Virus record (IMG/VR): IMGVR_UViG_3300037419_002757
Span: 1-56,857 of that record
DNA: 56,857 nucleotides
Strand: one strand, 5' to 3'
Source: a virus
Taxonomy: Duplodnaviria; Caudoviricetes
A program made the translations under genes and the position numbers. Shown here in pieces: positions 1,828 to 56,857 of the stretch (within the stretch, counting starts at the first letter, position 1; every line of letters starts with the position of its first letter). Under the pieces are notes generated by a model. That model saw only the letters and a program-made list of their open reading frames with translations. It was not told the DNA's origin and did not search any database.

Positions 1828-2139
1828 ATGTCCGCCACCGAAACCGACGATCGCACCCTCGCCACCCTCGTCACCGCCCTCGTTCTCATGCCGTTCGACC
1901 TCGCCTTCTTCGGGTGGCAGCGGTCGCTGGTGTGGTCGTGGTTCATCGTGCCGCTCGGCGTGCGGCCGCTCTCCATCGTGGAGGCGGTGGGGCTGGCGGT
2001 CGCGTGGTCCGTCATCAAGAACGGGAAGGACGACCGGAAGGAGACGCCGGGGGAGTTCGCGTCGCGCTGGCTGGAATCCGTGGTTCGCGGGCTCGTCGGG
2101 CTCGGAATCGCGTGGGTCGTGATGCGCCTGACGAGGTAG
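1828..2139 (+). CDS. Moron 1: small multi-pass membrane protein
   Basis: 103 aa with about three hydrophobic segments, own RBS and promoter, located between structural genes. Confidence 0.75.
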   Translation: MSATETDDRTLATLVTALVLMPFDLAFFGWQRSLVWSWFIVPLGVRPLSIVEAVGLAVAWSVIKNGKDDRKETPGEFASRWLESVVRGLVGLGIAWVVMRLTR

Positions 2140-2150
2140 ACTCCCGACGA
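2135..2150 (+). promoter_or_regulatory. Conserved motif GTAGACTYCCGACG, copy 1 (probable late promoter)
   Basis: GGTAGACTCCCGACGA, just upstream of the RBS of the next structural gene. Confidence 0.6.
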
Positions 2151-2164
2151 GCCGGAGTCCGCGC

Positions 2165-14500: not shown

Positions 14501-14798
14501 CGGCGCGTCGGCCCCCCTCCCCATCCCCGCCACGGAGCTGCGGAAGCGCGAGGACGTGGCGGTCGCCGGCACCGCCCCGTCGCCGGGGGATCTGGACGCC
14601 GCGCGCCGCGCCGTGGCGGGCTTCCGCCGGTTCGGCGCCCCGGGCGTGACACGGGAGGACATGGCGCAGGCCCGCCGGTGGCTCGCGTCGCAGGGCGTCG
14701 CCGCCGACACGCTCAAGGACGCGCAGGTCGTGGACGAGGTGGAGAAGCGGATGCAGCCGCCGGACGCGGCGGGGAAGGACTTGACGGCCTCGCCGTAG
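8535..14798 (+). CDS. Large internal virion / polyvalent protein with an ADP-ribosyltransferase-like (ART-PolyVal) domain
   Basis: 2087 aa. YHGT...F..FD...GLFGQGSYFTES..IA.EY...VYEASLDIRNP...GHDGI...WIAFDPEQI at about 10812-11291. C-terminal 'RETLYDYS..L.PFER.....YPFWNF' is typical of large phage ejection proteins. Confidence 0.8.
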   Translation: MGQLDDQYAALLAAQNPPPATPPTKPKATAPTTPSASTPTRPPAPAPAPDEVVKALARTPVAPVPDTPAPVGPPKASAGTETVLKGAAALGASPETLDTARRAATLPGFFTPDDVLSATVPQDLQTAAADKPPAKAGDDKPFIEQSGALPDTARLLINQQDPAAHRQVEAYFAGLPKHKDVALATPESAGDAEARALAKDTFGDLTPASVSAGDINYTKKVQKFLDERQGQLLRRWGYYDLSDTPEEAQRRNDLLAQAAQRARGDLVRMAQLGVAPTPLAADLATIPDAVKGTPVETAMRAVRAVLPQQEILPGGQASRSEGLGWWALGTLQIPEYLTSAGLDDKLSWEDALSGRKDLVTAYLDRHPDVAADFASGDPARFSRATEVLGPLMAASMLFPDPTMILSGGAKAAGKAAEYAELAGRVTKEMREARAAGTAASHLLDPAVWRRASAGLHAERSALKAEAAAKLAAEGGEVTATGLDAEVKAAAARKAAREGVARSVEAADRAMADAGDDFRAAVRAIEKDHPEMAREWTDRVHDELRKDPDVAAALGDRQRERILTGAPPPARDFAAERARLEQDIADLKTAQKAADDEVRAGRPAVPGANAHFADARKAKAEEMRRLDADEAAARGAAKLDAAVNAAGRKVLDDMKATVAGTPRPAPAPVPPVPPASDANAARLEQAKTALADARKREREASVAYDTAVATRDTATAAHRSTLAEALRARDAARADLRAAEEAERGLGDLTPPPAESKAQATVYHGTSDATFQNFDPYQSEHGLFGQGSYFTESEDIAREYKSKGRGTKPGVYEASLDIRNPIDMDAPADMAKWEEVLKRRGIDLADLLPKRKVLTNEMVYRALEQDFIDRAYPKWDAAQEIQDVLRGMGHDGITHVGGGRHAASKGVKHRVWIAFDPEQIVAARPMLGDRKAAHAEALTRAEQALAAHGDPGHPLRAAARDAEAAVARAAAERDARAADLQRSLADAKAAHDAVAADKARLAEQARIARTPPKPVSVLNPDETLDDLARSFALNRQATNNANFLLEKNAIVNRIRGSLAAVWRTGERLLVPAHETLGASLHLFTRERLDAFSGARKLVEREVARALDAFDPAATALHPRVRKVLEDHTEAFRMALSAKQVSPEAVVVAARSWIRPGGGLDPASVRQLLQVVEDWRAGGEDLPALRDALVAESRRIEQDAPTLVRLRAAQHGDATFTDAVTFNTLRFSLLNDLRSEGVAVSVADGEAANRWAAATADSARGRQVVARALANPCAYQPPTFGALIEGIAEHHARPMVPAGSAPPRPLWQVGRLAAQREMERDVEQLLGVVVKLDDSSTYLPRAVRDRLGAHLDGVVATYQMPQWTGTTQLFQSYFKQANTTGLLTLRPIYFVNNKIGDFDQAATMVGLKPAMKMTLQSMVTDLLVTSGRIPGTPIPTPPILPTAAMLLDWAQKAEPGTTLRRMDRFLAVSTLALGGETSAIMDGIGTVTLGGRTYDAAHLYRACLDHGVFENFIEGDLTRTVAQATVESGFGKFGRAVTRYERNLRDTANLVATRRRVALFAALLDRGASPEQAATLVRETLYDYSHSLHPFERGLLQTIYPFWNFEKNNNYRVYKAFRNPGKWTYSLGWVPVTPGYRAKGVHLAKKYLTDVLSAAFDSTDEFGYDVHSMREEPDPTLRQAMYDDLRKQGLDDAAIDARITDAFQKGELPNAAVRYEKVLADLRAQGLTTEQIQKALHPERGSAEGMADMRAYYAPDPTRRFLPEWARNRYAVWLGDRRSQALVSWTRKGVGAFEDSGDSRELAAIVEDSNGAALGRAASLMALAFAMKDVLTSEPRGPARAREAVRGVVGSTPFETPSSRLVLSLFGQLPRDANRPVNLPDATGAAFYKLLGPGFVTDNRTQARGEDPSQDETTKYQSRYTMDPTAAAYMSMILAGIGAVSMEQSADAWDDGITTGITGIRTYHASLDKNRAEARREVGQRLEDWTAALPAGASAPLPIPATELRKREDVAVAGTAPSPGDLDAARRAVAGFRRFGAPGVTREDMAQARRWLASQGVAADTLKDAQVVDEVEKRMQPPDAAGKDLTASP

Positions 14799-23598: not shown

Positions 23599-25773
23599 CT
23601 ACCTCTCCTTCGGCTCCCACACGCGGAGCCTCCCCTTCTCGTCGAACACCGGCTTCGCGCCCTTGTACCACCGGCGCATCAGCGACTCCTCGGCGCCCAC
23701 GGGGACGTCGGGGACGAAGACCTTCATCCCCTCGATCATGTGCTCCTTCAGCCGCACGTTGGCGGCGTGGACGGCGTCGATGCTCGCCTCGGTCGTGTCG
23801 TCGCCGGGGACCTCGAGGATGAACTCGTCGTGCAGGAACGCGACCGGCCGGCACCCGTAGAGCGGCTCGGGGGCGCGACGCCCGGCCCGCACCTCGGCGG
23901 CGAGCGCGAGGTCCGAGGACCCGAGGTAGCACTCCTTCGTGATGCGCCAGTCCGCCTCCTCCGTGCCGTCCGCCGTGAGGCCCTGGAAGAAGGAGTTGGC
24001 GGCGGAGGTGAAGGTGCAACCCCCGCGCACCCGGCCGGATCGGAGCTGGACGATCTGGAAGGACTCGCCGTACGCCCCGCCGAGGGACTTGATGTGCGCG
24101 AAGTACATGTCCGCCTCGCGGTACATGCGCTTCCAGATGCGCTTGACGTTCTCGGCCTTCTCCAGCGAGATCCTCACGCCGTAGTTCGCCCACGCGAAGT
24201 CGATGAACGTCTTCGCGCCGAGCCCGCCCGGGAGCCCGAAGTTGGCGGCCTTCGCCAACTGGCGGGCGTCCGCTGCCCACTCCTCTCCCGCCTTGAGCGC
24301 GGTCCGGAATCCGTCGTAGTCGATGTCGAGGTGCTCGCCGGCGGCGTGCAGGATCTCGACCGCCATCACGGAGTGCGGGTCCTTCCCTTCGCGGATGAGG
24401 TCGGCGAGGTCGGAGACGCCGAACAGGTCGAGGCAGACCTGCGCCCACGACACGAGCTCGATGAAGCTGTAGTCGGTGGCGAGGAAGAGGAAGCCGGGCC
24501 GCGGGACGAAGCATTCCCGCACACCACCCTTCCGCATCGGCTGTTGCATCGGCGGCTTCCAGCAGCTCGTCCGCCCCGTCGCGACGGGGTTGTTCCACGT
24601 CGGGTTGACGGGGGCCTGCACCCCGGCGAGGAGGTGGTCGAGCCACACCGACCCGATCTTCTCGTCGTTGCCGATGGCGGCGAGCAGCAGGAGCCGCGGG
24701 TCGGTCGTGCCTTCCAGCACCTCGCCCGCCGTGGAGACCTGCCCGTCGGGATACCGCGTGGACGGCGCGGTGCGGAGCGCCGGCACCCCCCGGCGCGCGG
24801 CGTCGCGCTCGACGAGGGCCTGGATCACCTTCGTGTCCCGGGACTCCTCCGTCTCGACGAGCCCCGTGGCCTTGCGCTTGACCGTCTTCACCTTCATCAC
24901 GGGTGCGTTCGTGTTGGGGAGCGTACCGTCGGGGGCGTCCCACGACACCTCGCGCTTGTCGAAGGCGTGGTCCACGAGGAGCTTGAACCGCTCCGTCGGG
25001 GGGTTGCGGAGGCGCTCGTACGCCGCGCGCGCGGGCATCCGCAACACCTCGTGGGCGTCCTCGCGCACGGCGCGGATGCGGGACTCGAGCTTCGACACCG
25101 CCTCGATGTCGGTGCGCAGGCCCCACATCCCCTTGAGGTGGTTCGACCACGCCCGCCGGGTCTGCTGCACCTCGTTCGGCAGGTAGTCGAGGACGTTCTC
25201 CAGCTCGCACTCGGCGGCCTGGTGGTCGAAGATGCGGACGTTCCACACCGCGTCGTCCTTGGCGTAGCGCACGGCCTCCTCCGGCCACGCCTCCAGCGGC
25301 ACCCTGTCGAGCTCGCGGTAGCGCAGGCGCCACGCGTCGGGGTTCGTCTTGTCGCCGGACAGGTCGATGCCGAAGCGGCGCTGCACGATCTCGGCCAGCG
25401 AGAAGCCGGACTTCCGGCCGTCCTCGTCGGTCTTCATCTCCCCGCGGGCGAGGAGGATGAGCTTGTCCCGCACCCGGCAGTCCCGGATGCGCCCGTCCTC
25501 GTACGCCCGGAACACGAGCGGCAGCAGGTCCGGCCGCTCGTTGCACACCACGCCGAAGTCGAAGGCGCCGTTCTGGACGAGGATGTGGGTGTCTTGCCGG
25601 AGAAGCGACTCGATCGCGAGGAGTGCGCCTTCGCGGAGTTCGAGCCACGTCGGCGTGACCCCGGGTGTCTCCTCGCAGTCCGCCCAATGGAAGCTTCCGC
25701 ACACCAGCGGCGGCGCAAGAAGTCCGGCTTGAATCAACCAAGTTTCGGTGTCGAAGCCGATGCGGGCGGGCAT
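23599..25773 (-). CDS. polA: DNA polymerase, family A, with 3'-5' exonuclease
   Basis: Exo motifs FDTET, QNGAFD, YAKDD; TGRTS; motif A DYSFIEL; motif B RQLAKAANFGLPGG; motif C FLHDE. Confidence 0.95.
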   Translation of the reverse strand: MPARIGFDTETWLIQAGLLAPPLVCGSFHWADCEETPGVTPTWLELREGALLAIESLLRQDTHILVQNGAFDFGVVCNERPDLLPLVFRAYEDGRIRDCRVRDKLILLARGEMKTDEDGRKSGFSLAEIVQRRFGIDLSGDKTNPDAWRLRYRELDRVPLEAWPEEAVRYAKDDAVWNVRIFDHQAAECELENVLDYLPNEVQQTRRAWSNHLKGMWGLRTDIEAVSKLESRIRAVREDAHEVLRMPARAAYERLRNPPTERFKLLVDHAFDKREVSWDAPDGTLPNTNAPVMKVKTVKRKATGLVETEESRDTKVIQALVERDAARRGVPALRTAPSTRYPDGQVSTAGEVLEGTTDPRLLLLAAIGNDEKIGSVWLDHLLAGVQAPVNPTWNNPVATGRTSCWKPPMQQPMRKGGVRECFVPRPGFLFLATDYSFIELVSWAQVCLDLFGVSDLADLIREGKDPHSVMAVEILHAAGEHLDIDYDGFRTALKAGEEWAADARQLAKAANFGLPGGLGAKTFIDFAWANYGVRISLEKAENVKRIWKRMYREADMYFAHIKSLGGAYGESFQIVQLRSGRVRGGCTFTSAANSFFQGLTADGTEEADWRITKECYLGSSDLALAAEVRAGRRAPEPLYGCRPVAFLHDEFILEVPGDDTTEASIDAVHAANVRLKEHMIEGMKVFVPDVPVGAEESLMRRWYKGAKPVFDEKGRLRVWEPKER

Positions 25774-25774
25774 G

Positions 25775-25984
25775 TCAGGGCTTCCGGATGCTGACGCTGC
25801 CCAAGAGCACGCCCAGGCACCACGTCGAGAAGGCCGTGAGGACGAAGATGCCCATCCCCCGCAGCCCTTGGAAATACGACGCGACGACCATCCCGACGCC
25901 GAGGGCCGGCACCGTCGCCAGAACCAGCACAACGAGCGACTTCTTTCCGTACTCGTCTTCGGCCTTCGACCTGTCTTCCGTCAT
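25775..25984 (-). CDS. Small two-TM membrane protein
   Basis: GGAGGT RBS; two hydrophobic stretches. Confidence 0.65.
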   Translation of the reverse strand: MTEDRSKAEDEYGKKSLVVLVLATVPALGVGMVVASYFQGLRGMGIFVLTAFSTWCLGVLLGSVSIRKP

Positions 25985-32334: not shown

Positions 32335-35172
32335 CTACCTCTTGAACGGCGATACCTTTCGTGCGTCGTCCGCCCCGACCAGCGCCGGGACGCCCAACTT
32401 CGCTTTCGTGTTCTCGTCGAACATGTAGTACATCACGCGGCGGTACGCAAGAGAGGAATCCATATTTCCGACCGCCCGGCGCTCCGAGCTGACGCCCATG
32501 TCGGAAAGGATGCGGCCAACCCGGGTAACGTCGGACTTCGAGATATCGGCGGGTTGCTTCTGGAGCGCCACGCGGCACACGTCGTCCACGCTCACCGGCG
32601 CGGGGTCCTTCCCCCGGGCGTACGTGAGGGCCCACTTCCGGATCGTCTCGTCCCACGCGTCCGTCGCGGTGTAGTGGCGCGTCATCTCCCGGAGCGTCGG
32701 CGTCTCGGGGTCGGTCGTCTCGAACCACCAGCGCGTCGCCCGGGAGCGGTGCCGCCCCTTGCCGACCTCGGACATGTAGAGCGCGTACGCCTCGGCGAAC
32801 CACGCCTCGCGCGTCTCCTCGATGCGGTCGAGATCCACCGGGCGGACGACGGTCATCGGCCACGTCCGGCGGTGCACGTCGAAGGCGGGGAGGAACTCCG
32901 GGTCGTTCGTCGTGCCGGCGAGGACGGTCTGGCGGGGATGCCGGTCCGGCGCGCGCTCGTACGGCGCCCGGTAGTTGTCCGTATCCGACGACATCCAGCT
33001 TCGGAACTGCGTCATGTCGGAGCGACGGAGCGCGTGCATCTCGCCGATCTCGTAGAGCCAGTTCCCCTGGATCTGCATGAAGCTGTCCTTGTCCTCCAGC
33101 CTCAGGTCCGACCGGGAGAACCACGCCTTGCTGGCGAGGAACTCGAAGCCGCGGGACTTGCCGACGCCTTCGTCGCCGAGCAGCACGGGCATGGTGTCCA
33201 CCTGACACCCGGGCTCCATGACGCGCGCGACCATCGACAAGAGGAACCGCCGCGAGATGAGACGCAGGACCTCCCCGTACCGCGCGTCGTCCTCCACCCC
33301 GAAGGCGTCGAGGAACATCGTGTCGATGCGGCTCTCGCCGTCCCACCGCAGGCTCCCGAGCCACGCCCGCACGGGGTGGAAGCTGCGGTCCCGGGCCACG
33401 AGCCGGATGCACTCCGCCACCCGCGCGCTCGTGGTGTCGAGCAGCCAGTCCCACCCGAGCCGGGCGGCGAGCTCCGTGCACGCCGTGTCCTTCAGCGTCG
33501 CGCCGTCGAGGCAGACGTCGCCGGAGAACTCGTTGAACGAGAGCCGCGTCGCCCACCGGGCGTCCTCGCGGAAGATCCGCGTGACGTTGGAGATGGTGTC
33601 GGCCGGCTTGACCACGCCGCCCGGGGAGATGAGCGCGAGCCGGGGCCACACCTCCGCGTCCGCGCCGGGCGGGAGGCCGACGGTCGCCGTCGCATGGCGC
33701 ACGCGCTCGGCCGCGCGCTCGGCCCGCACCCGTGCGGCGGACGCCTCTCGGCACGCCGCCTCGGCGGCCATCTTCTCGTCGAGCGCGGCCTGCCGGTCGT
33801 TCTCCGAGGACCCCGACGCGCCGCGCGTGACGGCGGCGTAGCGGCGGCGGGCCTCGTCCCGACGTCCGACGGCGGCGCCCTCGGCGGCGCGCGCGGCCGC
33901 GCACCGGGCCTCGGCCTGCTCGAGCTCGTCGGCGACGGCCTGGGCCTGCTCCGCAGGCGGGAGGCTCACGACGCGGGCGAGGCGCTGGACGGGCGGGGCC
34001 GGGGCCTCGACGGGCTTCGGGTCGCTGCCGAGCTGGGCCGGGGAGGTGATGTGGCCACGGTGCGGGCACGCCCGGCACCACGTCGATCCGGCGTCGCGCT
34101 CGATGGTGGCGCACGTGAACGGCCCGCTCTGCACCCGGGCGTACTCGTGGTCCGTCTCCTCGGGGGAGTAGCCGGGGTACGGCTCGGAGACGACGTGCGC
34201 CAGGGCCTCGCCGTGCTCGCACCGGGCGACGATGGACAGCAGCGCCCGCCACTCCGGATTGGGCAGGTCGGCCGCGTCCGCGACGGCGTGGCGCACGAAG
34301 GCGCAACGGTCGAGGATGAGCCCGAAGTCCTCACGCGGCGCGTCGGCGTCGGCGATGCGCGCGAAGGGGGAGTCGCCCCCGCCCCGCGTCCCCTCCGGGT
34401 AGACATTCTCCCGCGTTATCGATCGATTCGCTGGAGGTGTTTGAAGGGCTGGCGCGGGGCGGGTTTGATCTCGAAGAGGGCCGCCGCTCGACCTCGGAGG
34501 AACCACACGGGTCAGCGCGAGGACATCCCCGGGGTCGAGCGGCTTGCCCGGAACGTACTCGTAGACCCGGGGGACGTCAAGGCCCGGGGTCGTCCGCACC
34601 GACGGCCAGTACCAGAACCGCGACGGATTGGACGTGCTCGGGTCGATGCGGTCGTCGTGAGCCTTCGCCCATTCGTAGAGCGCGCGGTGCTCGTCGGCGG
34701 TGACGGGGCGTGCGAGCGGCAGCACCACGCGGAAGCGTGGCTTCTCCGCCGTGTACTGGATGGAGGAGTGGAGGTGCAGTTCCGACCCGGACCATCGCGA
34801 CAGCACGTCGCTCGTTCCGGTGAGAGGTTCCCCGTGCTTCCCGTCGTAGTCGAGCACGAGCGCGTGAACGGAGACGACGCACTCGTCGAAGCGCCCGACC
34901 GAACCGGAGGGGCACACGACGGCCCCCTTCCGCACGACGTCGGCCTTCGCCGGGCCGAACACGGCGGGCGTCCAGAGCGGGACGCTGGCCTTGTCCCGGT
35001 CGATGGCGGCCTTGTCGTCGCCGGACGCTGGCACCTCGAGGAACGCGGCGAGGTCGCCGAGGTCCATCTCGGACGGGGTGAGGTCCGTGCTCTGGACGTG
35101 GGCGATGAAGGTGACGGGGACGCGGCCGACGGGGCGGCTATCCGGCGGCGCCGGGTTGGCGGGTTCCTGCAT
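32335..35172 (-). CDS. Primase-helicase: AEP-like primase, Cys-cluster domain and VirE/VapE-type NTPase
   Basis: LVLDYD, HSS, RFRVVLPL, D....PSR.WY.P; C...C..C..C cluster; PGCQVD, GDEGVGKS, YEIGEM, RAPY, GTTN. Confidence 0.88.
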   Translation of the reverse strand: MQEPANPAPPDSRPVGRVPVTFIAHVQSTDLTPSEMDLGDLAAFLEVPASGDDKAAIDRDKASVPLWTPAVFGPAKADVVRKGAVVCPSGSVGRFDECVVSVHALVLDYDGKHGEPLTGTSDVLSRWSGSELHLHSSIQYTAEKPRFRVVLPLARPVTADEHRALYEWAKAHDDRIDPSTSNPSRFWYWPSVRTTPGLDVPRVYEYVPGKPLDPGDVLALTRVVPPRSSGGPLRDQTRPAPALQTPPANRSITRENVYPEGTRGGGDSPFARIADADAPREDFGLILDRCAFVRHAVADAADLPNPEWRALLSIVARCEHGEALAHVVSEPYPGYSPEETDHEYARVQSGPFTCATIERDAGSTWCRACPHRGHITSPAQLGSDPKPVEAPAPPVQRLARVVSLPPAEQAQAVADELEQAEARCAAARAAEGAAVGRRDEARRRYAAVTRGASGSSENDRQAALDEKMAAEAACREASAARVRAERAAERVRHATATVGLPPGADAEVWPRLALISPGGVVKPADTISNVTRIFREDARWATRLSFNEFSGDVCLDGATLKDTACTELAARLGWDWLLDTTSARVAECIRLVARDRSFHPVRAWLGSLRWDGESRIDTMFLDAFGVEDDARYGEVLRLISRRFLLSMVARVMEPGCQVDTMPVLLGDEGVGKSRGFEFLASKAWFSRSDLRLEDKDSFMQIQGNWLYEIGEMHALRRSDMTQFRSWMSSDTDNYRAPYERAPDRHPRQTVLAGTTNDPEFLPAFDVHRRTWPMTVVRPVDLDRIEETREAWFAEAYALYMSEVGKGRHRSRATRWWFETTDPETPTLREMTRHYTATDAWDETIRKWALTYARGKDPAPVSVDDVCRVALQKQPADISKSDVTRVGRILSDMGVSSERRAVGNMDSSLAYRRVMYYMFDENTKAKLGVPALVGADDARKVSPFKR

Positions 35173-36153: not shown

Positions 36154-36702
36154 GTGGCGTCCATGAAGAACACCCCGCCCCTCCTCGTCACCCTCGACCC
36201 CGGGCGCGACGGCTCCGGCGTCGCCGTGTTCGTTCACGGGCGATTCGTCGAGGCGGCGTACGTGCCACACGACGTCGGGAATCGCGAGGGCGCGGCGGCG
36301 TGGTGGCGGGCGGCGTGCGCCGTCGTGACGTGGGTGCAGTCCCGGACGCACGGGCAGTACACCACGGAGGGGGGCGTCTTCCTCACGGAGACCATGCGCA
36401 CGTACACCGGCGCCTCGGGCGCGGCGAACCCCGCCGACCTCCTGCACCTCGAGGGCGTGGCGGCGGCGTGCGTCGGCGTCTTCGGCGCGCTCGGGTTCGA
36501 GGTCGAGTCGGCGCTGGCCCGCGAATGGAACGGAAATGTGCCCCGGAAGATCCGCATGGCCCGAACGCGAGCGTGGCTCGAGGCGACGGAGGCCGGGAGC
36601 TCCGCGCGCGTGCGGTGCCCGCCCGGCGTGGCGCCGGGGCTGGTTCACAACGCGTGGAGCGCCGTCGGGATCGGACGGTGGCGACTCACGGGGTGCGCGT
36701 AA
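36154..36702 (+). CDS. RuvC-like Holliday junction resolvase (RNase H fold)
   Basis: LVTLDPG...SGVAVF, a conserved E, W.G.V.K and HN.WSAVGIG; the only + strand gene inside the - strand arm. Confidence 0.75.
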   Translation: MASMKNTPPLLVTLDPGRDGSGVAVFVHGRFVEAAYVPHDVGNREGAAAWWRAACAVVTWVQSRTHGQYTTEGGVFLTETMRTYTGASGAANPADLLHLEGVAAACVGVFGALGFEVESALAREWNGNVPRKIRMARTRAWLEATEAGSSARVRCPPGVAPGLVHNAWSAVGIGRWRLTGCA

Positions 36703-40670: not shown

Positions 40671-41162
40671 CTACAGGTAGTCGGGCGTCCAATCGATGAC
40701 GTCGGTCGCGACGCACGCGCCCGACGCCACGAGCTTCGCCAGGACGGACGCGCGTTCGTACCCGTCCCCGGCGTCCTCGCACGCGGCGTACGCCAACTCG
40801 GCCGCCTCGAGCGTCGGGAACGTGTAGCGCGTGACGGTGAACGGCTCGCCGTGGACGTGGCCGGAGCCGTCGCACGTCGGGCACGTGCGGTGAACGTGGC
40901 CCTTGCCGTCGCACTCGGGACACTCGCCCGTGCCCGGCGCGTCGTCCGGCAACCCGTCGGATCCGGTGCCGTCGCACGCGTCGCAACGAACGTTGCCGGG
41001 AGGTTCCGCGCCGGCGTTGCACGTCGGGCAGTCCACCTCGGCGTTGCGCGGGGTGTACCAGTAGCTTTCGGACTCCGGGGTGTCATCGTCCGCGGCTCGG
41101 GGAGACTCGACCTCGGCGTAGCCGTCGCCAATGAAGCAGGCATAGAGATTGAAAGCGGACAT
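40671..41162 (-). CDS. DnaJ-type zinc finger protein
   Basis: Four CxxCx(G)xG repeats (CPTCNAG, CDACDGTG, CPECDGKG, CPTCDGSG); no J domain. Confidence 0.8.
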   Translation of the reverse strand: MSAFNLYACFIGDGYAEVESPRAADDDTPESESYWYTPRNAEVDCPTCNAGAEPPGNVRCDACDGTGSDGLPDDAPGTGECPECDGKGHVHRTCPTCDGSGHVHGEPFTVTRYTFPTLEAAELAYAACEDAGDGYERASVLAKLVASGACVATDVIDWTPDYL

Positions 41163-41215
41163 GTTCGTCTCTCCAAGGGAAAGGGTGTCAGGGTTGCAGA
41201 GTATCCGTTTCGGCC

Positions 41216-41268
41216 CGTAGGGCTTTCTCCCGCGTCCGGACGCGCCGGGCACAGGCGGAAGCCCTACG
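41216..41268 (-). terminator. Intergenic stem-loop
   Basis: CGTAGGGCTT...AAGCCCTACG enclosing the palindrome CGCGTCCGGACGCG. Confidence 0.4.
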
Positions 41269-42209: not shown

Positions 42210-42500
42210 TCAGGCGGCCACCCGCACAGTGCGGACGGGGGAACGGAGCGCGCGGACGCTCGCGACGACGTCCCGCGAAAGCGGACGGGGGAACGTCGGA
42301 AGGGGCGCGAGCGCGCGGACGGGACGCGAGCGCGCCGGCGGATAGATCACGGTCCCGATCCGGTCGGTGGGGTTCCACGGGTCGGGCTCGAGGAGCGCCG
42401 GCGCGGAGTCGATCGCCAGGGAACAGAGGAACGGCGCGAGCGCCGGCGCGACGATCGCGAGCAGCAACGGCAGGGAGACCAGGAGGAAACAGGCGAGCAC
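42210..42500 (-). CDS. Hypothetical membrane or secreted protein
   Basis: GGAGTAACC-GTG start; hydrophobic N-terminus. Confidence 0.55.
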   Translation of the reverse strand: MLACFLLVSLPLLLAIVAPALAPFLCSLAIDSAPALLEPDPWNPTDRIGTVIYPPARSRPVRALAPLPTFPRPLSRDVVASVRALRSPVRTVRVAA

Positions 42501-42502
42501 GG

Positions 42503-42679
42503 TTACTCCAGATTCGAGGGAGGAAAGCAGCGGATGTCAGGGAAGACAGGGCAGAACTTGTCGCCCTGATACGTGGACCATTCGCGATCCGCGTACACGG
42601 TGCCCACGCACTCGACCGGGAGCGCGGTAGTGCAACGGCGGGCGCGGAAGGTGCGGCGGAAGGTGTAGCGCGCGAGCAT
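42503..42679 (-). CDS. 58-aa hypothetical protein
   Basis: GGAGTAACC-ATG start; its stop lies inside the next RBS. Confidence 0.5.
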   Translation of the reverse strand: MLARYTFRRTFRARRCTTALPVECVGTVYADREWSTYQGDKFCPVFPDIRCFPPSNLE

Positions 42680-42706
42680 GGTTACTCCGAATATTCGAGG
42701 TTTAGA

Positions 42707-42865
42707 CTACGCTTCGAGCAAGTTGGAGCCGTACCGCGGCACCCACGAATGCCAGGTGCCGCCCGCGGCCACGTCGAACCCCCGAAGGTGACGAACGTAG
42801 CCCGTATGCGCGAGGGAAGCGGACGCGGGGGAATAGCGAAGCACGAGGCGGAAGGAACGGTGCAT
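42707..42865 (-). CDS. 52-aa hypothetical protein, first early gene
   Basis: GGAG RBS, just downstream of a promoter-like element. Confidence 0.45.
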   Translation of the reverse strand: MHRSFRLVLRYSPASASLAHTGYVRHLRGFDVAAGGTWHSWVPRYGSNLLEA

Positions 42866-42886
42866 GGTCGAAACTCCAGTAACGCC

Positions 42887-42915
42887 ACTGTACCAGATAC
42901 CGGAGTAGTAGTCTA
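42887..42915 (-). promoter_or_regulatory. Early promoter
   Basis: TAGACT-N17-TACAGT with TG extension. Confidence 0.5.
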
Positions 42916-43472
42916 CACCCGAGCACGTCCTGGGCGAAAAATATAGAAATGCGAGCGGTCGCTCGGATTCTATCGCCGTACTGAACAGGTGAACATGCGA
43001 GGGCGCCAGAATCTGACCGCGAGATCGGGGGTATATTCAGGTGTTCAGTAGTGAGACCAGAATCTGTCCGAACACAAGCCTACTCAAGAACACGGCTAAT
43101 CACCCTCTGTAGCCCTGTAACCGCAGCACCAGACCCCTTGATAGTGCGGGGTCGAGGCCGGTTTCCCGGTTGGTTACACCCAAGCCTGACACACGCACCC
43201 GACCGGCACCCGACTGTCAACACTGACACCCTGTTCTGACACCCTCGACCCCACCCCGACACCTTGACAGCACCTCCGCGCCGACGTGGACAGTAACACT
43301 CGCGCCACGCCTCGCGCTGCGAGCTCCCACCCGCACCTGGCCCAGCCCGGCAGGGGGTACCCCGACAGCAAAAAAGTTCGATATTCGTCGTAGCCTCTCA
43401 CATATCCGTACGATTTATGGACGACGATTAGCGCCCTCTCCTCCCGATCTCGACGACCGTCCTTGGCGGATA

Positions 43473-43562
43473 CGCTATTACGTACGGCACTACCGCTATT
43501 ACGCTATTGGAACGGCGGGCGGACCGCTATTTAGGGTAACCGGCTACCGGACTACCGCTATT
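43473..43562. repeat. Five CGCTATT direct repeats
   Basis: Copies at 43473, 43494, 43502, 43525 and 43556; ACTACCGCTATTACG occurs twice. Confidence 0.85.
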
Positions 43563-43722
43563 ACGGCCCCGTCACCGCCAGATGCCCCGTCGTCCGGGCG
43601 CCCGACGACACGAATAGCGCGGACATCAGAGCGAAAGTCGGCGTTCGACGTCCATTTCCGGCAGATTTCAGCGGCGGAGCCGTGCGGAACGCGTCGGGAC
43701 CAACGCTTTGCGTCCGTACGTT

Positions 43723-44211
43723 CGTCGTGAGGACGTGTTTGCTATGTCGGCCAGCCAAAATCGGCCTTCTTCCGTAACTCTGCCGCGTCGCAAGTGGCCA
43801 GTGGACTACATGTGGAGTACCTTTACCACCAGGTCGGCCACAGAAAAACGGATTTCGCCCGAGATATTCGCTATAACTGACGACCTCCCCCCGAAAGTCT
43901 GAAGATCTCTGTCGTGCAGACCCCTCGTTGTAGCGGGAATATGAAGCATATGGAAACCATACTTATAATATAGCTATGGTTTCCATATGCTTCATGTTCC
44001 CGCTACTACGTGGGCTGCTCATGAGACAGAAGTACACTTTTTTTTCGGGAGGTCGGCCACGTCAAGAACTTCCGAGGTTGTACTTCGATGATTCGTGGCC
44101 GACCTGTTCTCGGGACATCCAATAGTAGTCCACTGGCCGCTTGCGACGCGCCAAGACGTGCGGAAAACGCCGTCTTTCGTTGGCCGACATAGCAAACGCG
44201 TCCTCACGACG
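43723..44211. repeat. Long nested imperfect inverted repeat centred at 43968
   Basis: Paired blocks: 43723-753/44181-211 (30/31), 43784-809/44125-150 (25/26), 43830-841/44095-106 (12/12), 43881-889/44047-055 (9/9), 43930-961/43975-44006 (31/32). Confidence 0.95.
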
Positions 44212-44302
44212 TTTCACGTTCGCGTCACGACGTCACGTCTGGCGCATCTGACGGGGTTGCGCTCCAGACGTCTCCGAGGTACACCCGATCCCGGAGGCTC
44301 CC

Positions 44303-45100
44303 ATGCCCATTCTGCGTCTCGTCCCCGTCGTCCCCCGAAGCAACCATCGACCCGGCGAACCGAACGTCTCGCTCCTTACGGCGATCAAGGCGACGTGCGA
44401 GGCGTTCGTCGATCGCTCTCCACCACACCGTCCGCTCGGAGAATGCTGGGAGACCTACTACATGTTCCCGTACCAGCGTCGCCTCTGGCACCCCGCGCGC
44501 CTGATGTGGTCGGCGACGCACACGGACATGTCGCTCGGCCGGCTCAAGCTCGTGCATCGCTGCCAGAACCCGCTCTGCGTCAACCCCGATCACCTGTGGG
44601 TGCCGGCCCTCCAGGGCGACCCGCCCGACGACCTCGTGCTGCCGGAGAAGCACACGACGGAGGAGGATTGGGCGGAGTACGACGCGGCGTTCGACAGCCA
44701 GCCGATTCCGCGTCGCCTGCCGATGCGGGCGAAGGCCCGCGCCGCGCTCACGGAGGAGAACGTGCGCTGGATCCGGGCCCACTACACCGGCACCGGCACG
44801 GGCAGCGCCTCGCACCTGGCGAAGACCTTCTCCGTCTCCCTCGCGACCGTCATGGACGTCGTCCACCGGCGGACGTGGAAGCACGTCTCCGACGAGCCCC
44901 CGGCCCCGCCGAAGGTCGAGGTCCCTGCGCCCCCGGTCGAGCCATCCGCCTCGCGCCCGCCCGCGAAGCTGCCGCCCGCGCTCGAAGCGGCCCTGCGCCG
45001 GGCGTCTCCCGTACCCGCTGTGGCTCCGCCCACCCCCGTGCCGGTCGAGACGCCCGCCGAGCCCCGGCGTCTCCCGCGGCGGTTGTGGGGGAAGGCGTGA
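44303..45100 (+). CDS. HNH-like domain, HTH and Pro-rich tail
   Basis: ECWE...HRCQNPLCVNPDHL; LTEENVRWIR...LAKTFSVSLATV.DVV.RRTWKHV; GGAGG RBS. Confidence 0.8.
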   Translation: MPILRLVPVVPRSNHRPGEPNVSLLTAIKATCEAFVDRSPPHRPLGECWETYYMFPYQRRLWHPARLMWSATHTDMSLGRLKLVHRCQNPLCVNPDHLWVPALQGDPPDDLVLPEKHTTEEDWAEYDAAFDSQPIPRRLPMRAKARAALTEENVRWIRAHYTGTGTGSASHLAKTFSVSLATVMDVVHRRTWKHVSDEPPAPPKVEVPAPPVEPSASRPPAKLPPALEAALRRASPVPAVAPPTPVPVETPAEPRRLPRRLWGKA

Positions 45101-45414
45101 ACGCGCGCATCGCCCGCAAGGTCATCCGCCGCGCCCACCCGGCGCTCTACTCCCAGGCGCAGGTCCACCGTGCGCTGCGCCGGCAGGAGCGGCGGATGCT
45201 CCTGCATCGCGAGCACGCTGCGGAGTGGTGTCGCGAGTGCGAGACGGAGGCCCACGCGTTCACGCTCGCGATGTCGATGGACACCGGACACTACCCGTGG
45301 GGTCGGTGGAAGTGTCTCATGCAGCGCGCCGCCGAGGGGACGCTGACCGACGAGGAACTCGTCACGCTGGCGAAGGCGGCGGCGTGGCTCGGGAAGTCGT
45401 CACCGGACAGGTAG
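45097..45414 (+). CDS. Hypothetical protein
   Basis: GTGA overlap; 105 aa. Confidence 0.6.
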   Translation: MNARIARKVIRRAHPALYSQAQVHRALRRQERRMLLHREHAAEWCRECETEAHAFTLAMSMDTGHYPWGRWKCLMQRAAEGTLTDEELVTLAKAAAWLGKSSPDR

Positions 45415-45438: not shown

Positions 45439-46029
45439 GTGACGTCCTCCGACCGTCCGCTCCCCCGTCGCCTCCGCCCGCCGCCCGCGCCGGCGGCGCC
45501 GGGGCCCGTCGCGACCGTGGACACCGACCGCCCCGCGCGCATCCGCTTCGCGGCGGAGATGTTCCTCCACGGCGCGAAGGAGTCGGAGGTGCTGGCGCAG
45601 GTCCGCGAGCGGTGGGGCGTGACGCTGGAGCAGGCCCGGCAGGATCTCGTCGAAGTGAAGATCGAGGCCCGCCGGGTGCTGGGCGACGAGGACAGCATCG
45701 CCATGTTCATGCTCCGGAAGGTGGGGCAGCTCGAGCAGGTCGGCGAGCGGCTCCACGCCGACGCGCTCGCCGACGACCCCGCGCTCCCGGAGTCCATCGC
45801 CGCCGACGTCGTGGACCCGATGACGCTCATCCAGCACGAGCGCAACGTGCAGGCGTCGCGGTCCCAGCGCGCGCAGAGCGCGAGAGCCTTCGCGGACATC
45901 ACGAAGGTCTCGACCGCGCTCGTGGGTCAGCCCTCCCGCACGTACGGCCCGAAGCGGGACGCGACGCCGGGCGGGGACGTCTCGCCGGAGCAGCGCGAGG
46001 CGCTGGAGAACTTCTGGAGGGACGAGTGA
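45439..46029 (+). CDS. Putative terminase small subunit
   Basis: N-terminal HTH-like segment then helices; upstream of TerL; TGcTACTCT 6 nt before the GTG suggests a leaderless start. Confidence 0.55.
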   Translation: MTSSDRPLPRRLRPPPAPAAPGPVATVDTDRPARIRFAAEMFLHGAKESEVLAQVRERWGVTLEQARQDLVEVKIEARRVLGDEDSIAMFMLRKVGQLEQVGERLHADALADDPALPESIAADVVDPMTLIQHERNVQASRSQRAQSARAFADITKVSTALVGQPSRTYGPKRDATPGGDVSPEQREALENFWRDE

Positions 46030-46268
46030 GCGACAGGGCCTACGCGCCGGGCGACGTGCTGCGGGAAGTCAAACGTCGGCAGGCGGTGATGGAAGCCTGT
46101 CCCGGGCACGTCTTCGTCCAGGACATCGACATCCGGAACCACGGCACGAAGTCGTGGTTGTGCACCGTGTGTGGCGAACGTGCCGACGCTTCGTGGGTCT
46201 ACGCCTACAAGCAGGGCCTTCTCCACGCACAGCGCGGACACGCGGCGGAGGGGCTGTTCAAGTCGTGA
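46026..46268 (+). CDS. Small zinc-binding hypothetical protein
   Basis: C..H...CTVC; GTGA overlaps on both sides. Confidence 0.65.
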   Translation: MSDRAYAPGDVLREVKRRQAVMEACPGHVFVQDIDIRNHGTKSWLCTVCGERADASWVYAYKQGLLHAQRGHAAEGLFKS

Positions 46269-47887
46269 CGCCCCCCAACCCCGACGAACTCTTCCGGAGA
46301 GCGAAGGATCCCCGCCGGTTCCCGCTGCTCTGCAAGATCACGTCCGAGGAGGGCGAGACCGGGTACCTCAAGCTGACGCACCTCCAGAAGCTCGTGCTCG
46401 ACGTCTACGCCACGTACCTCTGGAGCTACGTCATCAAGCCCCGGCAGGCGAAGACCTCGACCATCACCGGCTTCGACCTCCTCCGCCACGTCATGCTCAA
46501 CAAGGGGCAGCGCGGGCTCGTCATCGCGGAGAAGGAGCAGACCGCGCTCGAAATCTTCCACCGCATCCTCATCGCCCACCGGAACCTGCCGCCCGACTTC
46601 CGCAAGCACATCCCCATCAAGCGTTCGACGGCGTCGGCGATCGAGTGGGCGGAGGGTCACGACTCCTTCGCCTCCGTCGTCACCGGCGGGAGCGACAACC
46701 CCGCCATCGGTCACTCCCCCGACTACGCCCACATCACGGAGTACGGGGAGCTGCGGAACTACGACACGTTCAACCCGGCCGTGTTCCCGTCCATCTCCAA
46801 GCGCCCGAACAGTCGCCTGCGGATCGAGACGACCCCCGGGCAGTACGGCACGCCAGCGCACCGGATGTGGCTCAACGCGCTCAACGGCGAGGGCTACTTC
46901 ACCGCGCCGCGGGGGAAGGCCCTGTTCCTCGAGTGGTGGACGGACCCGAGCTACTGCCAGCCCCCCGAGCCGGGCTTCGTGCGGACGCTGGAGGAGCACC
47001 GCCTCGCGGAGAAGCTCGTCGGCATCACCGACGCCCACCTGAAGTTCCGGCGCCTGGAGCTCGACACGGCGTACCACGGCGACGTGCGGCTGTTCGACAG
47101 CAAGTACCCGCCCGGCCCGCGGGACGGGTGGATCCTGCACGGGACGCCGGCCATCCCCATCGACGCCGTCGAGTACCTCCAGAGCCTCCCCGGCGTGACG
47201 AGCGTGCCGGAGGGGGAGGAGCGCATCTACGAGGGGCCGGAGGAGGGCATCTACCAGGACCGCCGGGTCGGGGCGCCGTACATCATCACCGCCGACCCGG
47301 CCGGCTTCGGAGACAACGGCGATCCGAGCGCGCTCATCGTGTGGAACGGGTGGGACTGGCGCGAGGTGGCGCACTGGTCGGGGCGGGAGGACCCGAACCT
47401 GTTCGCCGACCGGATCATGCGCCTGCAACGCCTGTACGACTGCGACGTTCTCGTCGAGGCCAACAAGGGCGAGTGCTGCGCCGCGCTGCGCTCCCGCGGC
47501 TGTCCCCGGCTGGTGTGGGACAACGGACAGCCCGGGTGGTTCTCGACCGACGTGAAGAAGGCGCAGACCGTGACGGACTTCGTGGACATGCTGCGTCGTC
47601 GGGAAGTCGGCATCCGGTCCCAGCAGATCCTCGACCAGATTGCCGGGTGGGACGGGAAGACCCGGAAGCGCACGGGCGGGCACCACTGGGACCGCGCCGT
47701 CGCCGCGGCAATGATCGGCTTCGCGGCGAAGCGCATGGCCTACGGGAGCCGCCCGCGGCGCGCAGGCGTCGTGCTCGACACGTCGGGCGGTCCGTCGTGG
47801 CGGTCGCTCAAGGCCGTGTTCGACCGCCGCGCCGCCGAGGACGAGCGAGGATCCGGCGGGTGGGAGCGGAGGTGGAAGTCGTTCTGA
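46265..47887 (+). CDS. terL: Terminase large subunit
   Basis: IKPRQAKTST (Walker A), AHITE (Walker B), IETTP, ADPAG...D.SA, VEAN, HWDR. Confidence 0.92.
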   Translation: MTPPNPDELFRRAKDPRRFPLLCKITSEEGETGYLKLTHLQKLVLDVYATYLWSYVIKPRQAKTSTITGFDLLRHVMLNKGQRGLVIAEKEQTALEIFHRILIAHRNLPPDFRKHIPIKRSTASAIEWAEGHDSFASVVTGGSDNPAIGHSPDYAHITEYGELRNYDTFNPAVFPSISKRPNSRLRIETTPGQYGTPAHRMWLNALNGEGYFTAPRGKALFLEWWTDPSYCQPPEPGFVRTLEEHRLAEKLVGITDAHLKFRRLELDTAYHGDVRLFDSKYPPGPRDGWILHGTPAIPIDAVEYLQSLPGVTSVPEGEERIYEGPEEGIYQDRRVGAPYIITADPAGFGDNGDPSALIVWNGWDWREVAHWSGREDPNLFADRIMRLQRLYDCDVLVEANKGECCAALRSRGCPRLVWDNGQPGWFSTDVKKAQTVTDFVDMLRRREVGIRSQQILDQIAGWDGKTRKRTGGHHWDRAVAAAMIGFAAKRMAYGSRPRRAGVVLDTSGGPSWRSLKAVFDRRAAEDERGSGGWERRWKSF

Positions 47888-47908
47888 CGGACACGCGGCA
47901 GCCGACGG

Positions 47909-47919
47909 GGTAGACTCCG
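47909..47919 (+). promoter_or_regulatory. Partial copy of the conserved late motif upstream of the portal
   Basis: GGTAGACTCCG. Confidence 0.45.
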
Positions 47920-47939
47920 CCCAGTACCGGAGTTCTCCC

Positions 47940-49682
47940 TTGTTGCCTTCGATGTATCGCCAGACGATCGAGCGCCACGTCGCCCGCTACAAGGACAAGG
48001 GCGGGGAGAAGGAGTTCTTCGACAAGGTCCGGCGCGTGTACCGCGGGGAGTTCTGGAGCTCGAAGTCGGGGCCGTCCGAGGCGCAGTTGATGAAGATGAG
48101 CACGAACCTCGTGTTCGCCATCACCGACACCGCGCTCTCGACGCTCGTGCCGCCGAACCCGCAGGTCTCGGCCATCCCCCGCAACCGCGCCGACGAGGAC
48201 CGCGTGGCGAGCGCCGAGGACGTGGTGAACCTCGCCTTCGACACCGGGCGCTTCCGCCGCGAGCTCGGGACGACCACGTTCCACGCCGTGCTCTACGGTC
48301 GCGGCGTCGGCAAGACGGTGTGGGACAGCGCCCGGGACCTGCCGGTGACGCGGAGCATCGACCCGCGGAACCTCTTCTTCGACCTCGTCGCGACGCGGCC
48401 GGAGGACATCCGGTACTGGATCGAGCTGACGCTGGTGGGCGAGCGGGAGTTCCTCAAGCGCGTCGAGTCGGGGCAGTACGACAAGGCCGTCGCCGCCGAG
48501 TACCGGGCCGACACCTACCCCCGGTGGATGCTGCCGGACGACGCGAAGGAATGGGACAGTCAGAAGCTCAAGAACTTCCAGAAGTGGCACATCGTGTACG
48601 AGTGCTACGACATGGAGGACGGGAAGGTCTGGCACTTCTGCCCGGACGCCGACAAGCCCCTGTTCGAAGACGATCTTCTCTACCTCCCCTACGACCTGCT
48701 GGCGCTCAACAGCAACGGCGAGGACTGCCGGGGGCTCTCCGAGATCGGCCTGATTCTCGACAACCAAGAGGAGTACAACCTCCTCTCGACGTACCTGCAC
48801 AACATCGTCCGATACCAGATCGGCCGGCTCGGCTACGACGCCGGGGCGATCACCGAGGATCTGGCGCAGAAGATGAACGAGACGCCGCTCGGGGGCATGA
48901 CGCCCTTCAGCCTCCGCGAGAACATGCGCGGGCAGGGTCTCACGGCGAAGGACGTCGTCTTCGAGCTCCCCGTCGTCCACGCGCAGCCCGAACAGATCGA
49001 CCTCCTCGCCCGGCTCCGCGAGGGCATCGCCTACGTCTCGGCGCTCGCCGACGCGCAGCGTGGGCAGGTCACGGGCGCGAAGACGGCGACGGAGCTCGCG
49101 CTCATCGAGGGGCAGCTCCGCAATCGCCTGCGGAACCGGCAGACCGCGCTCGACGAGTTCACGGAGTCCTGCGCGTCGAAGCAGCTTCTTCTCGCCTCCC
49201 GGTTCATGCGGAAGGAGAAGGTCCTGCGCATCACCGGCGAGGAGGGGTGGCGGAGCATCGACCCGTGGAGCCTCGAGGGCGTCGAGGCGACGTTCAAGAT
49301 GGTCCCATACAGCCCAATGGAGAGCAACCGGGCGGTGAAGGCGGAGATCATGCGGTCGATGATCGACGTGTTCGCCAACAACCCGCTCATCGACCAGCGG
49401 AACTTCTTCTACCACCTGCTCAAGCTGCTCGACATGCCTGCCGACGTGCTGAAGAAGCAGGAGGACGTCGAGGCGGCAGGCGCTCCCGGCATGGGAGCAC
49501 CCGCGGCCCCCGGCGCGCCGGGTCCGGGCGCCCCCGTCGTCGCGCTGCCGGACCCCAACGCGGCGCCACTCCCGCCGAACGTGCAGGCATTGGCGAACGC
49601 GCAGGTCCCCGGCCCGGCGGGCGCCGTGGCGCCGGGGGAGACACCGATGGGCGGGGGTCCGGCTACGACGGGGCCGGGGTAG
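47940..49682 (+). CDS. Portal protein (podoviral, P22-like)
   Basis: 580 aa after TerL; G.GVGK, IDP.N.F.D, RG......TATE motifs; Pro/Ala-rich tail. Confidence 0.88.
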   Translation: MLPSMYRQTIERHVARYKDKGGEKEFFDKVRRVYRGEFWSSKSGPSEAQLMKMSTNLVFAITDTALSTLVPPNPQVSAIPRNRADEDRVASAEDVVNLAFDTGRFRRELGTTTFHAVLYGRGVGKTVWDSARDLPVTRSIDPRNLFFDLVATRPEDIRYWIELTLVGEREFLKRVESGQYDKAVAAEYRADTYPRWMLPDDAKEWDSQKLKNFQKWHIVYECYDMEDGKVWHFCPDADKPLFEDDLLYLPYDLLALNSNGEDCRGLSEIGLILDNQEEYNLLSTYLHNIVRYQIGRLGYDAGAITEDLAQKMNETPLGGMTPFSLRENMRGQGLTAKDVVFELPVVHAQPEQIDLLARLREGIAYVSALADAQRGQVTGAKTATELALIEGQLRNRLRNRQTALDEFTESCASKQLLLASRFMRKEKVLRITGEEGWRSIDPWSLEGVEATFKMVPYSPMESNRAVKAEIMRSMIDVFANNPLIDQRNFFYHLLKLLDMPADVLKKQEDVEAAGAPGMGAPAAPGAPGPGAPVVALPDPNAAPLPPNVQALANAQVPGPAGAVAPGETPMGGGPATTGPG

Positions 49683-56468: not shown

Positions 56469-56857
56469 GTGCCGAATCTGGAGTTCCCGCTTCCCGTCGT
56501 CGAGTCCGGCAAGGTGTACGTGCCGGGCACGCTCGCGCGGGAGATCCGGAACCTCCAGCGGACGAACCAGGACACGCTCCGGTCCGTCCGCGGGCCGGCG
56601 CCGCTCGTGCCGGACTACGGCTCGGGCTACCCGTCGCAGTACGACCACATGTTCGGCGTCGTCCACGCCCGGCTCGCCCGCGGCGGGACGCGGGACTGTC
56701 TGCTCGTGCGGACGGGGGACAAGCTCATCGAGCAGCGCGGGTGGAGCCGCGACTTCCGGACGCTCCGGACGGGGCTGTCCCCCGACGTCAACGGGCGCTA
56801 CCCCGACCAGTTCTGCGTCGTCAACGGGCGCATCGTGTGGACGAACGGCATCGACCG
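56469..56857 (+). CDS. Tail nozzle protein, 5' part (continues at position 1)
   Basis: GTG CCG AAT CTG... is open to the window end and in frame with 105..1775. Confidence 0.75.
   Translation, partial: MPNLEFPLPVVESGKVYVPGTLAREIRNLQRTNQDTLRSVRGPAPLVPDYGSGYPSQYDHMFGVVHARLARGGTRDCLLVRTGDKLIEQRGWSRDFRTLRTGLSPDVNGRYPDQFCVVNGRIVWTNGID
56731..56857. repeat. Terminal direct repeat, right copy
   Basis: Identical to 1-127. Confidence 0.97.

Follow-up and report, generated by a model that had tools for sequence, protein, structure and literature searches.

A 489-bp interrupted palindrome on the stability minimum of a tailed-phage genome: a candidate replication origin or packaging signal

The virus record IMGVR_UViG_3300037419_002757 (Duplodnaviria; Caudoviricetes), a record of 56,857 bp from an uncultured soil phage which we analysed over its full length and refer to as the window, contains a 489-bp interrupted (hyphenated) palindrome at positions 43723-44211. 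It is found in a single copy, its axis falls on the stretch of the genome that is easiest to melt, and we conclude that its likeliest function is that of a replication origin or a packaging signal. Between these two we lean, tentatively, towards an origin in which protein-binding blocks of two-fold symmetry would surround an unwinding core. Origins and packaging sites are not known for almost all uncultured phages, and a palindrome situated on the melting minimum is a concrete candidate for the start of replication or packaging in a lineage that, judged from sequence comparisons, is without a cultured relative.

The palindrome is built around an axis at 43967-43968, the coordinates of paired positions summing to 87934 or 87936. 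A repeat search resolved it into the arm pairs 43881-43967/43969-44055 (87 nt, 75% complementary, 1 nt apart), 43723-43768/44166-44211 (46 nt, 87%), 43781-43816/44118-44153 (36 nt, 86%) and 43830-43841/44095-44106 (12 nt, 100%), and a minus-strand self-match covers 43723-44211 at 72% identity. When the left arm is aligned, with gaps, to the reverse-complemented right arm, 191 of the 264 columns match and about 28% differ, and the matches are distributed unevenly. An initial annotation, made from the sequence alone, had described five near-perfect paired blocks that share one axis within 1 bp and are separated by partly complementary spacers of similar length, and our alignment confirms this arrangement (blocks A to E in Table 1), with the refinement that block B is most safely regarded as 25 bp with one mismatch, since its innermost pair (43810/44124) is, when read by eye, mismatched as well. 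The blocks are at least 96% identical between the arms; the spacers are alike in length on the left and the right side (31/31, 19/17 and 88/88 nt), their sequences being only about half identical. The three block mismatches counted in the annotation are indeed all of one kind, with T in the left and G in the right arm (43736/44198, 43795/44139 and 43940/43996), and the word GTCGGCCA, said to recur five times, does so, these being 5 of its 19 copies in the genome. Block E furthermore holds two 13-bp mini-palindromes (43939-43951 and 43949-43961). The symmetry is odd, the axis being situated on a base, and the core is imperfect owing to a CT/GC mismatch adjoining the TATA-A-TATA centre. Folded as DNA, the central 87 nt reach -37.8 kcal/mol (z -15.7), and the right arm has a side hairpin of its own (z -3.8), the mirror stretch of the left arm giving z +0.6.

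The palindrome is confirmed as real and as more than a product of chance. Its fold as a whole has a z of -21.0 as DNA, -21.5 as + strand RNA and -17.7 as - strand RNA, none of 100 shuffled sequences folding as well, and the clustering of matches into blocks is likewise far from random, since none of 20000 column shuffles produced three 26-column windows with 25 or more matches each, and 9 of 20000 reached the sum of the six longest runs. When the inverted repeats of the window are ranked by length, the first three all belong to the palindrome. Hairpins with arms of at least 25 nt, no more than one mismatch and a loop of 15 nt or less number exactly one in the window, at the palindrome, and none in 144 unrelated loci (1.19 Mb). 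In addition, blocks A, B and E are matched in the genome solely by themselves and their own mirror copies, in the case of block A even when up to 5 mismatches are allowed.

Neither is the palindrome an assembly artefact. Nine metagenome runs of soil or rhizosphere, each from a different study, contain the region, and four of them that carry no flag as a possible source of the record (X3, X4, X5 and X7) were compared as contigs rather than raw reads. A contig from X7 spans the axis (43871-44083) with zero differences, one from X5 covers 43977-44197 with one difference, and X4 has coverage in 30 of 30 bins of the region. An artefact is contradicted both by the divergence of the arms, which the initial annotation had already put forward as an argument, and by these contigs from other runs that cross the centre, and a fold-back chimera in particular is disfavoured by the approximately 28% of aligned columns that differ between the arms. 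It should also be mentioned, as a point in favour of the origin proposed below, that all eight of the right-arm strain differences listed lie outside the blocks, for which a rough chance estimate, given the stretches covered by the variant contigs, is about 0.06.

The setting of the palindrome is equally distinctive. Third-position GC indicates that the - strand is coding between about 18.2 and 42.9 kb and the + strand from 44.3 kb, past the record ends, to about 17 kb, and the two gene blocks diverge from a stretch (about 42900-44300) that is without third-position GC periodicity and in which GC drops to 47-60%. The leftward block opens with a gene that begins at 42865/42866 and has a GGAG ribosome site, and the HNH endonuclease gene starts 92 bp beyond the palindrome end. 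The AT-rich core noted in the initial annotation is borne out, the 40-bp window 43938-43977 having 25% GC against a genome mean of 70%, and the 50-step window 43938-43988, on the dyad axis, ranks first in the genome for low duplex stability, its nearest-neighbour energy being -56.8 where the genome averages -82.6 (sd 4.8), a difference of roughly 5 sd towards lower stability. The second least stable window (43369-43419) is found in the same gap, 550 bp from the core, and between the two, about 100-250 bp to the left of the palindrome, lie 6 of the 7 genome copies of the word CGCTATT (43473-43620), in an iteron-like array that also holds ACCGCTATT repeats at 31-bp spacing.

The notion of an origin rests on this combination of one cis site per genome, a location at the stability minimum and a place in the sole large gap where the gene blocks diverge. 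Since the blocks are at least 96% identical, the spacers vary in sequence but not in length, the element is single-copy and the axis coincides with the melting minimum, an assembly site for protein on DNA with two-fold geometry appears a better description than a continuous stem. The iteron-like array with its neighbouring trough, the phage's own replisome and the position at gene-block divergence, taken together, would furthermore suit an origin that fires in both directions. A rare cluster of direct repeats beside an AT-rich element, here the two least stable windows, is the composition expected of an iteron origin, and no lysogeny or partition genes were detected in the phage by six-frame Pfam and PHROG searches. 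In such an origin, a phage protein would bind the conserved blocks, which are presented in mirror order at matched distances on either side of the axis; the VapE-type primase-helicase, a candidate for the origin-binding or the loaded helicase, or another initiator might take this role. The 25%-GC core on the axis, being the easiest site of the genome to melt, would then open, whether its strands simply separate or the 32-bp hairpins at the centre extrude into a small cruciform, whereupon two replisomes might be loaded head to head and depart in opposite directions, each co-directional with the transcription of a gene block. To the left, the second AT-rich trough together with the CGCTATT repeats could serve the same origin in an accessory role or as another place of initiator binding. 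The suggestion of an origin element in the initial annotation is in agreement with this interpretation.

Origins with a comparable geometry exist outside the phages. Those of herpes simplex virus (oriL and oriS) and the core origin of SV40 have two-fold initiator sites around an AT-rich centre, are located between divergent transcription units and have helicases loaded both ways; they differ from the palindrome in that they measure 27-144 bp, belong to another host domain and have no homology to it. The palindrome of the phage lambda origin is only tens of bp. A phage palindromic origin of about half a kb, in which mirror arrays of blocks, possibly with extruded 32-bp hairpins, load two primase-helicase complexes head to head as a counterpart of the herpes-, polyoma- and papillomavirus origins, would be a rather bold proposal, and we regard this specific version as improbable.

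With respect to phages, the lambda origin as outlined in PMC12663957 offers a similar layout, in that clustered direct repeats (iterons) which bind the initiator are placed beside an AT-rich stretch that unwinds, just as the CGCTATT copies are found by two troughs here. The lambda origin is however contained within its initiator gene, whereas the present one would be intergenic and have a 489-bp dyad, and no O-like initiator was identified in this phage. A functionally tested origin at the divergence of gene blocks is found in Ceduovirus (c2-type), where it is likewise non-coding, lies between early and late blocks and supports plasmid replication (PMC7150918), and the same position has been used as an argument for an origin in the PLE satellite (PMC7145576, where a maximum of read depth marks the origin of ICP1). 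Ceduovirus members are, unlike this phage, low-GC siphoviruses with mapped cos ends, no palindrome of several hundred bp is described for them in the consulted part of PMC7150918, and we found no sequence or protein similarity between them and this phage. As to the cost of such an element, long palindromes are cut by SbcCD in studied hosts (PMC4245961) and the Lamassu DdmABC system is activated by palindromic sequences of phages (PMC11707656), so that the retention of this one suggests selection and argues for a function; it also raises the question of how the phage evades SbcCD and Lamassu. A word search of the open-access literature, supplements not included, found no palindrome of several hundred bp in an intergenic region of a tailed phage, which is weak evidence of absence. 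Should the element prove to be an ordinary origin, its value would mainly be that of an annotation rule, namely to search the divergent non-coding gap for dyad symmetry that coincides with its stability minimum.

A number of observations nonetheless weigh against an origin. To our knowledge, no described origin requires anything near 489 bp of symmetry. The initiator protein is only a candidate and the primase-helicase gene is 8.5 kb distant, GC skew tracks gene orientation and thus gives no independent origin signal, and adjacency to the HNH and terminase genes suits a packaging site equally well. While the anatomy, uniqueness, stability minimum, position and gene content are shown, protein binding, unwinding and the start of replication are deduced from sequence. 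Against an essential role, the one distant relative that has DNA upstream of its large terminase (TerL) gene, the metagenome-contig locus L004, lacks inverted repeats of at least 16 nt in those 2.3 kb. Moreover, contigs from the other runs have joints in this region, 43664>44855 in three of the four runs (X3, X5 and X7) and 43924>44125 in one of the four (X4), which represent either deletions or stretches too diverged to align and affect the palindrome as well as the HNH gene up to two thirds of its length; should they be genuine deletions, related phages do without the centre or even the whole of the element.

The main rival to an origin is a cos or pac site. The small terminase (TerS) would recognise the repeated blocks, the CGCTATT array or both, cleavage by the terminase, possibly assisted by the HNH protein, would take place on the AT-rich axis or close to it, and DNA would then be packaged rightward into the terminase and structural genes. 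We consider this unlikely, even though a cis site that is present once, contains repeated words and melts easily at its centre is in good agreement with it, as is the short distance from the end of the palindrome to the HNH gene and, after this, to the presumed TerS and TerL genes. HNH proteins encoded beside terminase genes do aid cos cleavage in several phages (PMC12967558, citing Kala 2014 and Quiles-Puchalt 2014), and the gene order resembles that of the HNH-dependent cos regions of HK97, phiSLT and Skunavirus, as described there. The HNH protein of this phage is however at least twice as large as in those phages, its 265 aa being far more than the 13.3-kDa packaging HNH of the same source, and it may be a free-standing homing enzyme. 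TerL is different as well and only remotely T4-type (26% identity or less), so that a packaging mode cannot be deduced from it, TerS is assigned by position only, and packaging requires a direction, yet the element is two-fold symmetric. The comparison with contigs of the four runs listed no site at which molecules start or stop. More doubtful still is a regulatory inverted duplication, in which two outward promoters in the core would produce a pair of paralogous leader RNAs, each about 240 nt long, or in which a single read-through transcript would fold into a rod-like hairpin some 245 bp long, to be processed or to shield the late mRNA. The location between divergent gene blocks and the fold of the + strand RNA (z -21.5) are compatible with this, -10-like hexamers can be read by eye at the axis (TATAAT at 43964-43969 on the + strand and TATATT on the - strand), mismatches of the G.T type outnumber those of the A.C type 9 to 4 on the + strand over the whole palindrome, and three of the four listed transitions at paired sites preserve + strand pairing. 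A promoter scan nevertheless found no sigma-70-type sites in 42300-44500, the -35 positions matching at 3 of 6 bases, and the same stretch has one terminator-like site against 1.4 expected. The strand bias is furthermore not significant (9 versus 4, or 12 versus 5 with strain transitions included, one-sided estimate about 0.07) and could be explained by mutation bias, the - strand folds nearly as well as the + strand (-296 versus -302 kcal/mol), the spacers no longer pair, and the blocks are not reused as promoters elsewhere in the genome. Rfam gave no match at the gathering threshold, sub-threshold matches being generic miRNA hairpins only, and the rod-like non-coding RNA proposed in the initial annotation is consequently unsupported, given the insignificant bias and the lack of an Rfam family at threshold.

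A foldback mobile element resembling a miniature inverted-repeat transposable element, or a neutral and functionless relic of an inverted duplication, is very unlikely. The 31-bp terminal inverted repeats and the lack of coding capacity might suggest it, and the contig joints hint that relatives may differ at this position. The element is however present in a single copy in the phage and is not flanked by a target-site duplication at 43722/44212, where the flanks (...ACGTT and TTTCAC...) share a direct repeat of 2 nt at most. A 17-mer of the terminal block had 47 single exact matches in 185,579 species (one genome each), none of them paired and none extending beyond 24 nt, which is about the number we would expect by chance; this search used exact words only and a diverged family could escape it. 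Neutral decay, for its part, would not leave blocks of at least 96% identity beside equally long spacers of about 50%. The least probable explanation, to which we attach very little weight, is a site of telomere resolution or of concatemer-junction processing, cut and resealed or resolved as a cruciform by an unrecognised enzyme, such as the possibly RuvC-like product of the gene at 36154 or the HNH protein, and yielding hairpin-ended or unit-length molecules. It derives from the resemblance to the telRL/tos site of N15, where nested inverted repeats around a central palindrome form the protelomerase site, and to poxvirus junctions, which share nested inverted repeats around an AT-rich core, and also from the DPG...ETM...HNA motifs of the 36154 product, which we take to be RuvC-like, its order of secondary structure elements and a weak RuvC lead from the Atlas. 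The palindrome differs from tos in its odd symmetry (axis on base 43967/43968), its core that is not a perfect even palindrome and its much longer and more diverged arms, and no protelomerase or partition genes accompany it. Indeed, a six-frame Pfam search detected no protelomerase, tyrosine or serine recombinase, ParA or ParB, there being no matches at E<=1 to ResT-TelK_cat, Phage_integrase, ParB_N or AAA_31; the control genomes did give matches, and a very divergent enzyme could escape. The statement in the initial annotation that the genome lacks a protelomerase is supported in that none is detectable. Since the arms cease to be complementary at 43723/44211 and give way to unique flanks with different genes, the palindrome is not a head-to-head genome junction, RuvC membership of the 36154 product is unconfirmed (no family match; model pLDDT 42.5), and the record assembles as a circle, its ends (1-127 and 56731-56857) being identical over 127 bases. 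We read these ends as assembler overlap and the record as a circular assembly of about 56,730 bp, 127 bases presumably being the length of a k-mer overlap under common assembler settings; IMG/VR labels them direct terminal repeats. With no such enzyme detected, and with an odd, imperfect axis and unique flanks, the end-processing site of the initial annotation is left unsupported.

Searches for relatives returned little on which an origin or any other function could be compared. A blastn search with 43400-44300 against 50,697 phage records gave no match, and TerL as a single query found no relatives in IMG/VR. A search with a TerL alignment retrieved one IMG/VR locus (L003, 42% identical, with 406 bp upstream), the metagenome-contig locus L004 (TerL 34% identical) and no species genomes, and tblastn with 10 window proteins against 262 loci matched only these two and, weakly, L185. 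Among the IMG/VR matches listed for the central 15-mer there was no inverted pair, just single-arm or same-strand matches, and a scan with a three-iteron pattern found unrelated tandem repeats only. We also observed that in L003 about 1.37 kb (1942-3310) separate the TerL and portal matches, compared with 53 bp in the window (47887 to 47940), and that locus thus probably carries an insertion between the two genes.

Table 1. Coordinates of the palindrome blocks, the associated non-coding features and selected genes in the window (strand given for genes).
Feature	Position	Strand	Description
Block A	43723-43753 / 44181-44211		31 bp, one T.G mismatch; GTCGGCCA at 43746
Block B	43785-43810 / 44124-44149		26 bp; one T.G mismatch (43795/44139) in first 25 bp
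Block C	43830-43841 / 44095-44106		12 bp, perfect; CAGGTCGGCCAC
Block D	43881-43889 / 44047-44055		9 bp, perfect; decayed GTCGGCCA-like word in left copy
Block E	43930-43961 / 43975-44006		32 bp, one mismatch; inner arm of 32-bp stem
AT-rich core around TATA-A-TATA	43938-43988		Genome-wide minimum of GC and duplex stability
Side hairpin, right arm only	44046-44112		Third AGGTCGGCCAC copy (44050-44060) opposite block C'; pair of 12 nt, 100%, 32 nt apart
Iteron-like array	43471-43620		CGCTATT five times direct (43473, 43494, 43502, 43525, 43556), once inverted (43613)
Second AT-rich trough	43370-43409		Second-lowest GC (40%); left of iteron-like array
Sole large non-coding region	42867-44302		1,436 bp, between leftward early/replication and rightward HNH/terminase genes
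HNH endonuclease	44303-45100	+	265 aa; PHROG 6254 E 6.5e-8 and four further HNH/endonuclease families
Short coding stretch	45097-45414	+	About 100 aa, third-position GC periodicity; no family match
196-aa protein	45439-46029	+	Small terminase by position alone
Large terminase (TerL)	46154-47887	+	PHROG 2 E 2.8e-14; 7 homologues
Primase-helicase, VapE-like	32335-35172	-	944 aa; Pfam VapE-like_dom E 1e-59; PHROG DNA helicase and primase families
Family A DNA polymerase	23599-25932	-	Pfam DNA_pol_A E 4.2e-15; PHROG 17 E 3.8e-37
36154 product	36154-36702	+	Sole + strand gene within leftward block

The remainder of the gap contains further repeats. An 18-nt inverted pair (42979-42996 / 43033-43050, 83% complementary) is interleaved with a 14-nt direct repeat (43006-43019 / 43057-43070), and this stretch (42979-43070) looks like an operator for the leftward early genes. 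Direct repeats of a TGACAC type are found at 43176-43272, and since many single-base deletions and substitutions occur here in run X4, this is a hypervariable part of the gap. Small mirrored open reading frames at the core (43976-44125 on the + strand and its partner on the - strand) were considered and rejected as genes, as they have neither ribosome sites nor the GC bias at third positions that is typical of the genome, and another mirror open reading frame (43708-43899) had no homologue among predicted proteins.

With respect to the genes to the right of the palindrome, the initial annotation had placed the element just upstream of genes for an HNH protein with a helix-turn-helix (HTH), TerS and TerL. 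Profile matches uphold HNH and TerL, the HNH protein also having a weak Pfam zf-His_Me_endon match below the cut-off; no HTH family was matched in it (Pfam and PHROG), and TerS follows from position only. For this presumed TerS no Pfam, PHROG or PDB match was found, Atlas leads are of the HTH type only (0.90), and five homologues exist among 1.84 billion representatives. TerL is no more than 26% identical to that of any cultured phage, and it is followed by a P22-like portal gene and, further into the rightward block, by genes resembling those for internal virion proteins.

In the leftward block, the primase-helicase reaches an identity of about 31% with records in the phage collection, and the replication genes further include a helicase and an 871-aa protein with an exonuclease-like N-terminus. 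The 36154 product and four aligned homologues have the DPG, ETM and HNA motifs in common, its element order is beta-beta-beta-alpha-beta-alpha-beta-alpha in a poor model (pLDDT 42.5), and the Atlas lead to RuvC is at rank 20 with 12% of members. These properties may point to a RuvC-like nuclease with an RNase-H-like order of elements, which we take as a lead; the label of phage RuvC in the initial annotation is not confirmed, as the protein matched nothing in Pfam, PHROG, PDB or a six-frame RuvC search. A homologue of it with 85% identity (P0009) is encoded on a 62-kb contig, and this homologue was not found in IMG/VR. A 192-aa protein encoded at 40671-41249 on the - strand has a weak match, below the Pfam cut-off, to a DnaJ-type CXXCXGXG zinc finger. 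Among the internal-virion-protein-like genes, finally, the + strand gene at 8535-14798 encodes a protein of 2087 aa in which residues 760-920 match the ART-PolyVal domain above the cut-off (Pfam E 7.9e-11), and which is probably an injected polyvalent protein.

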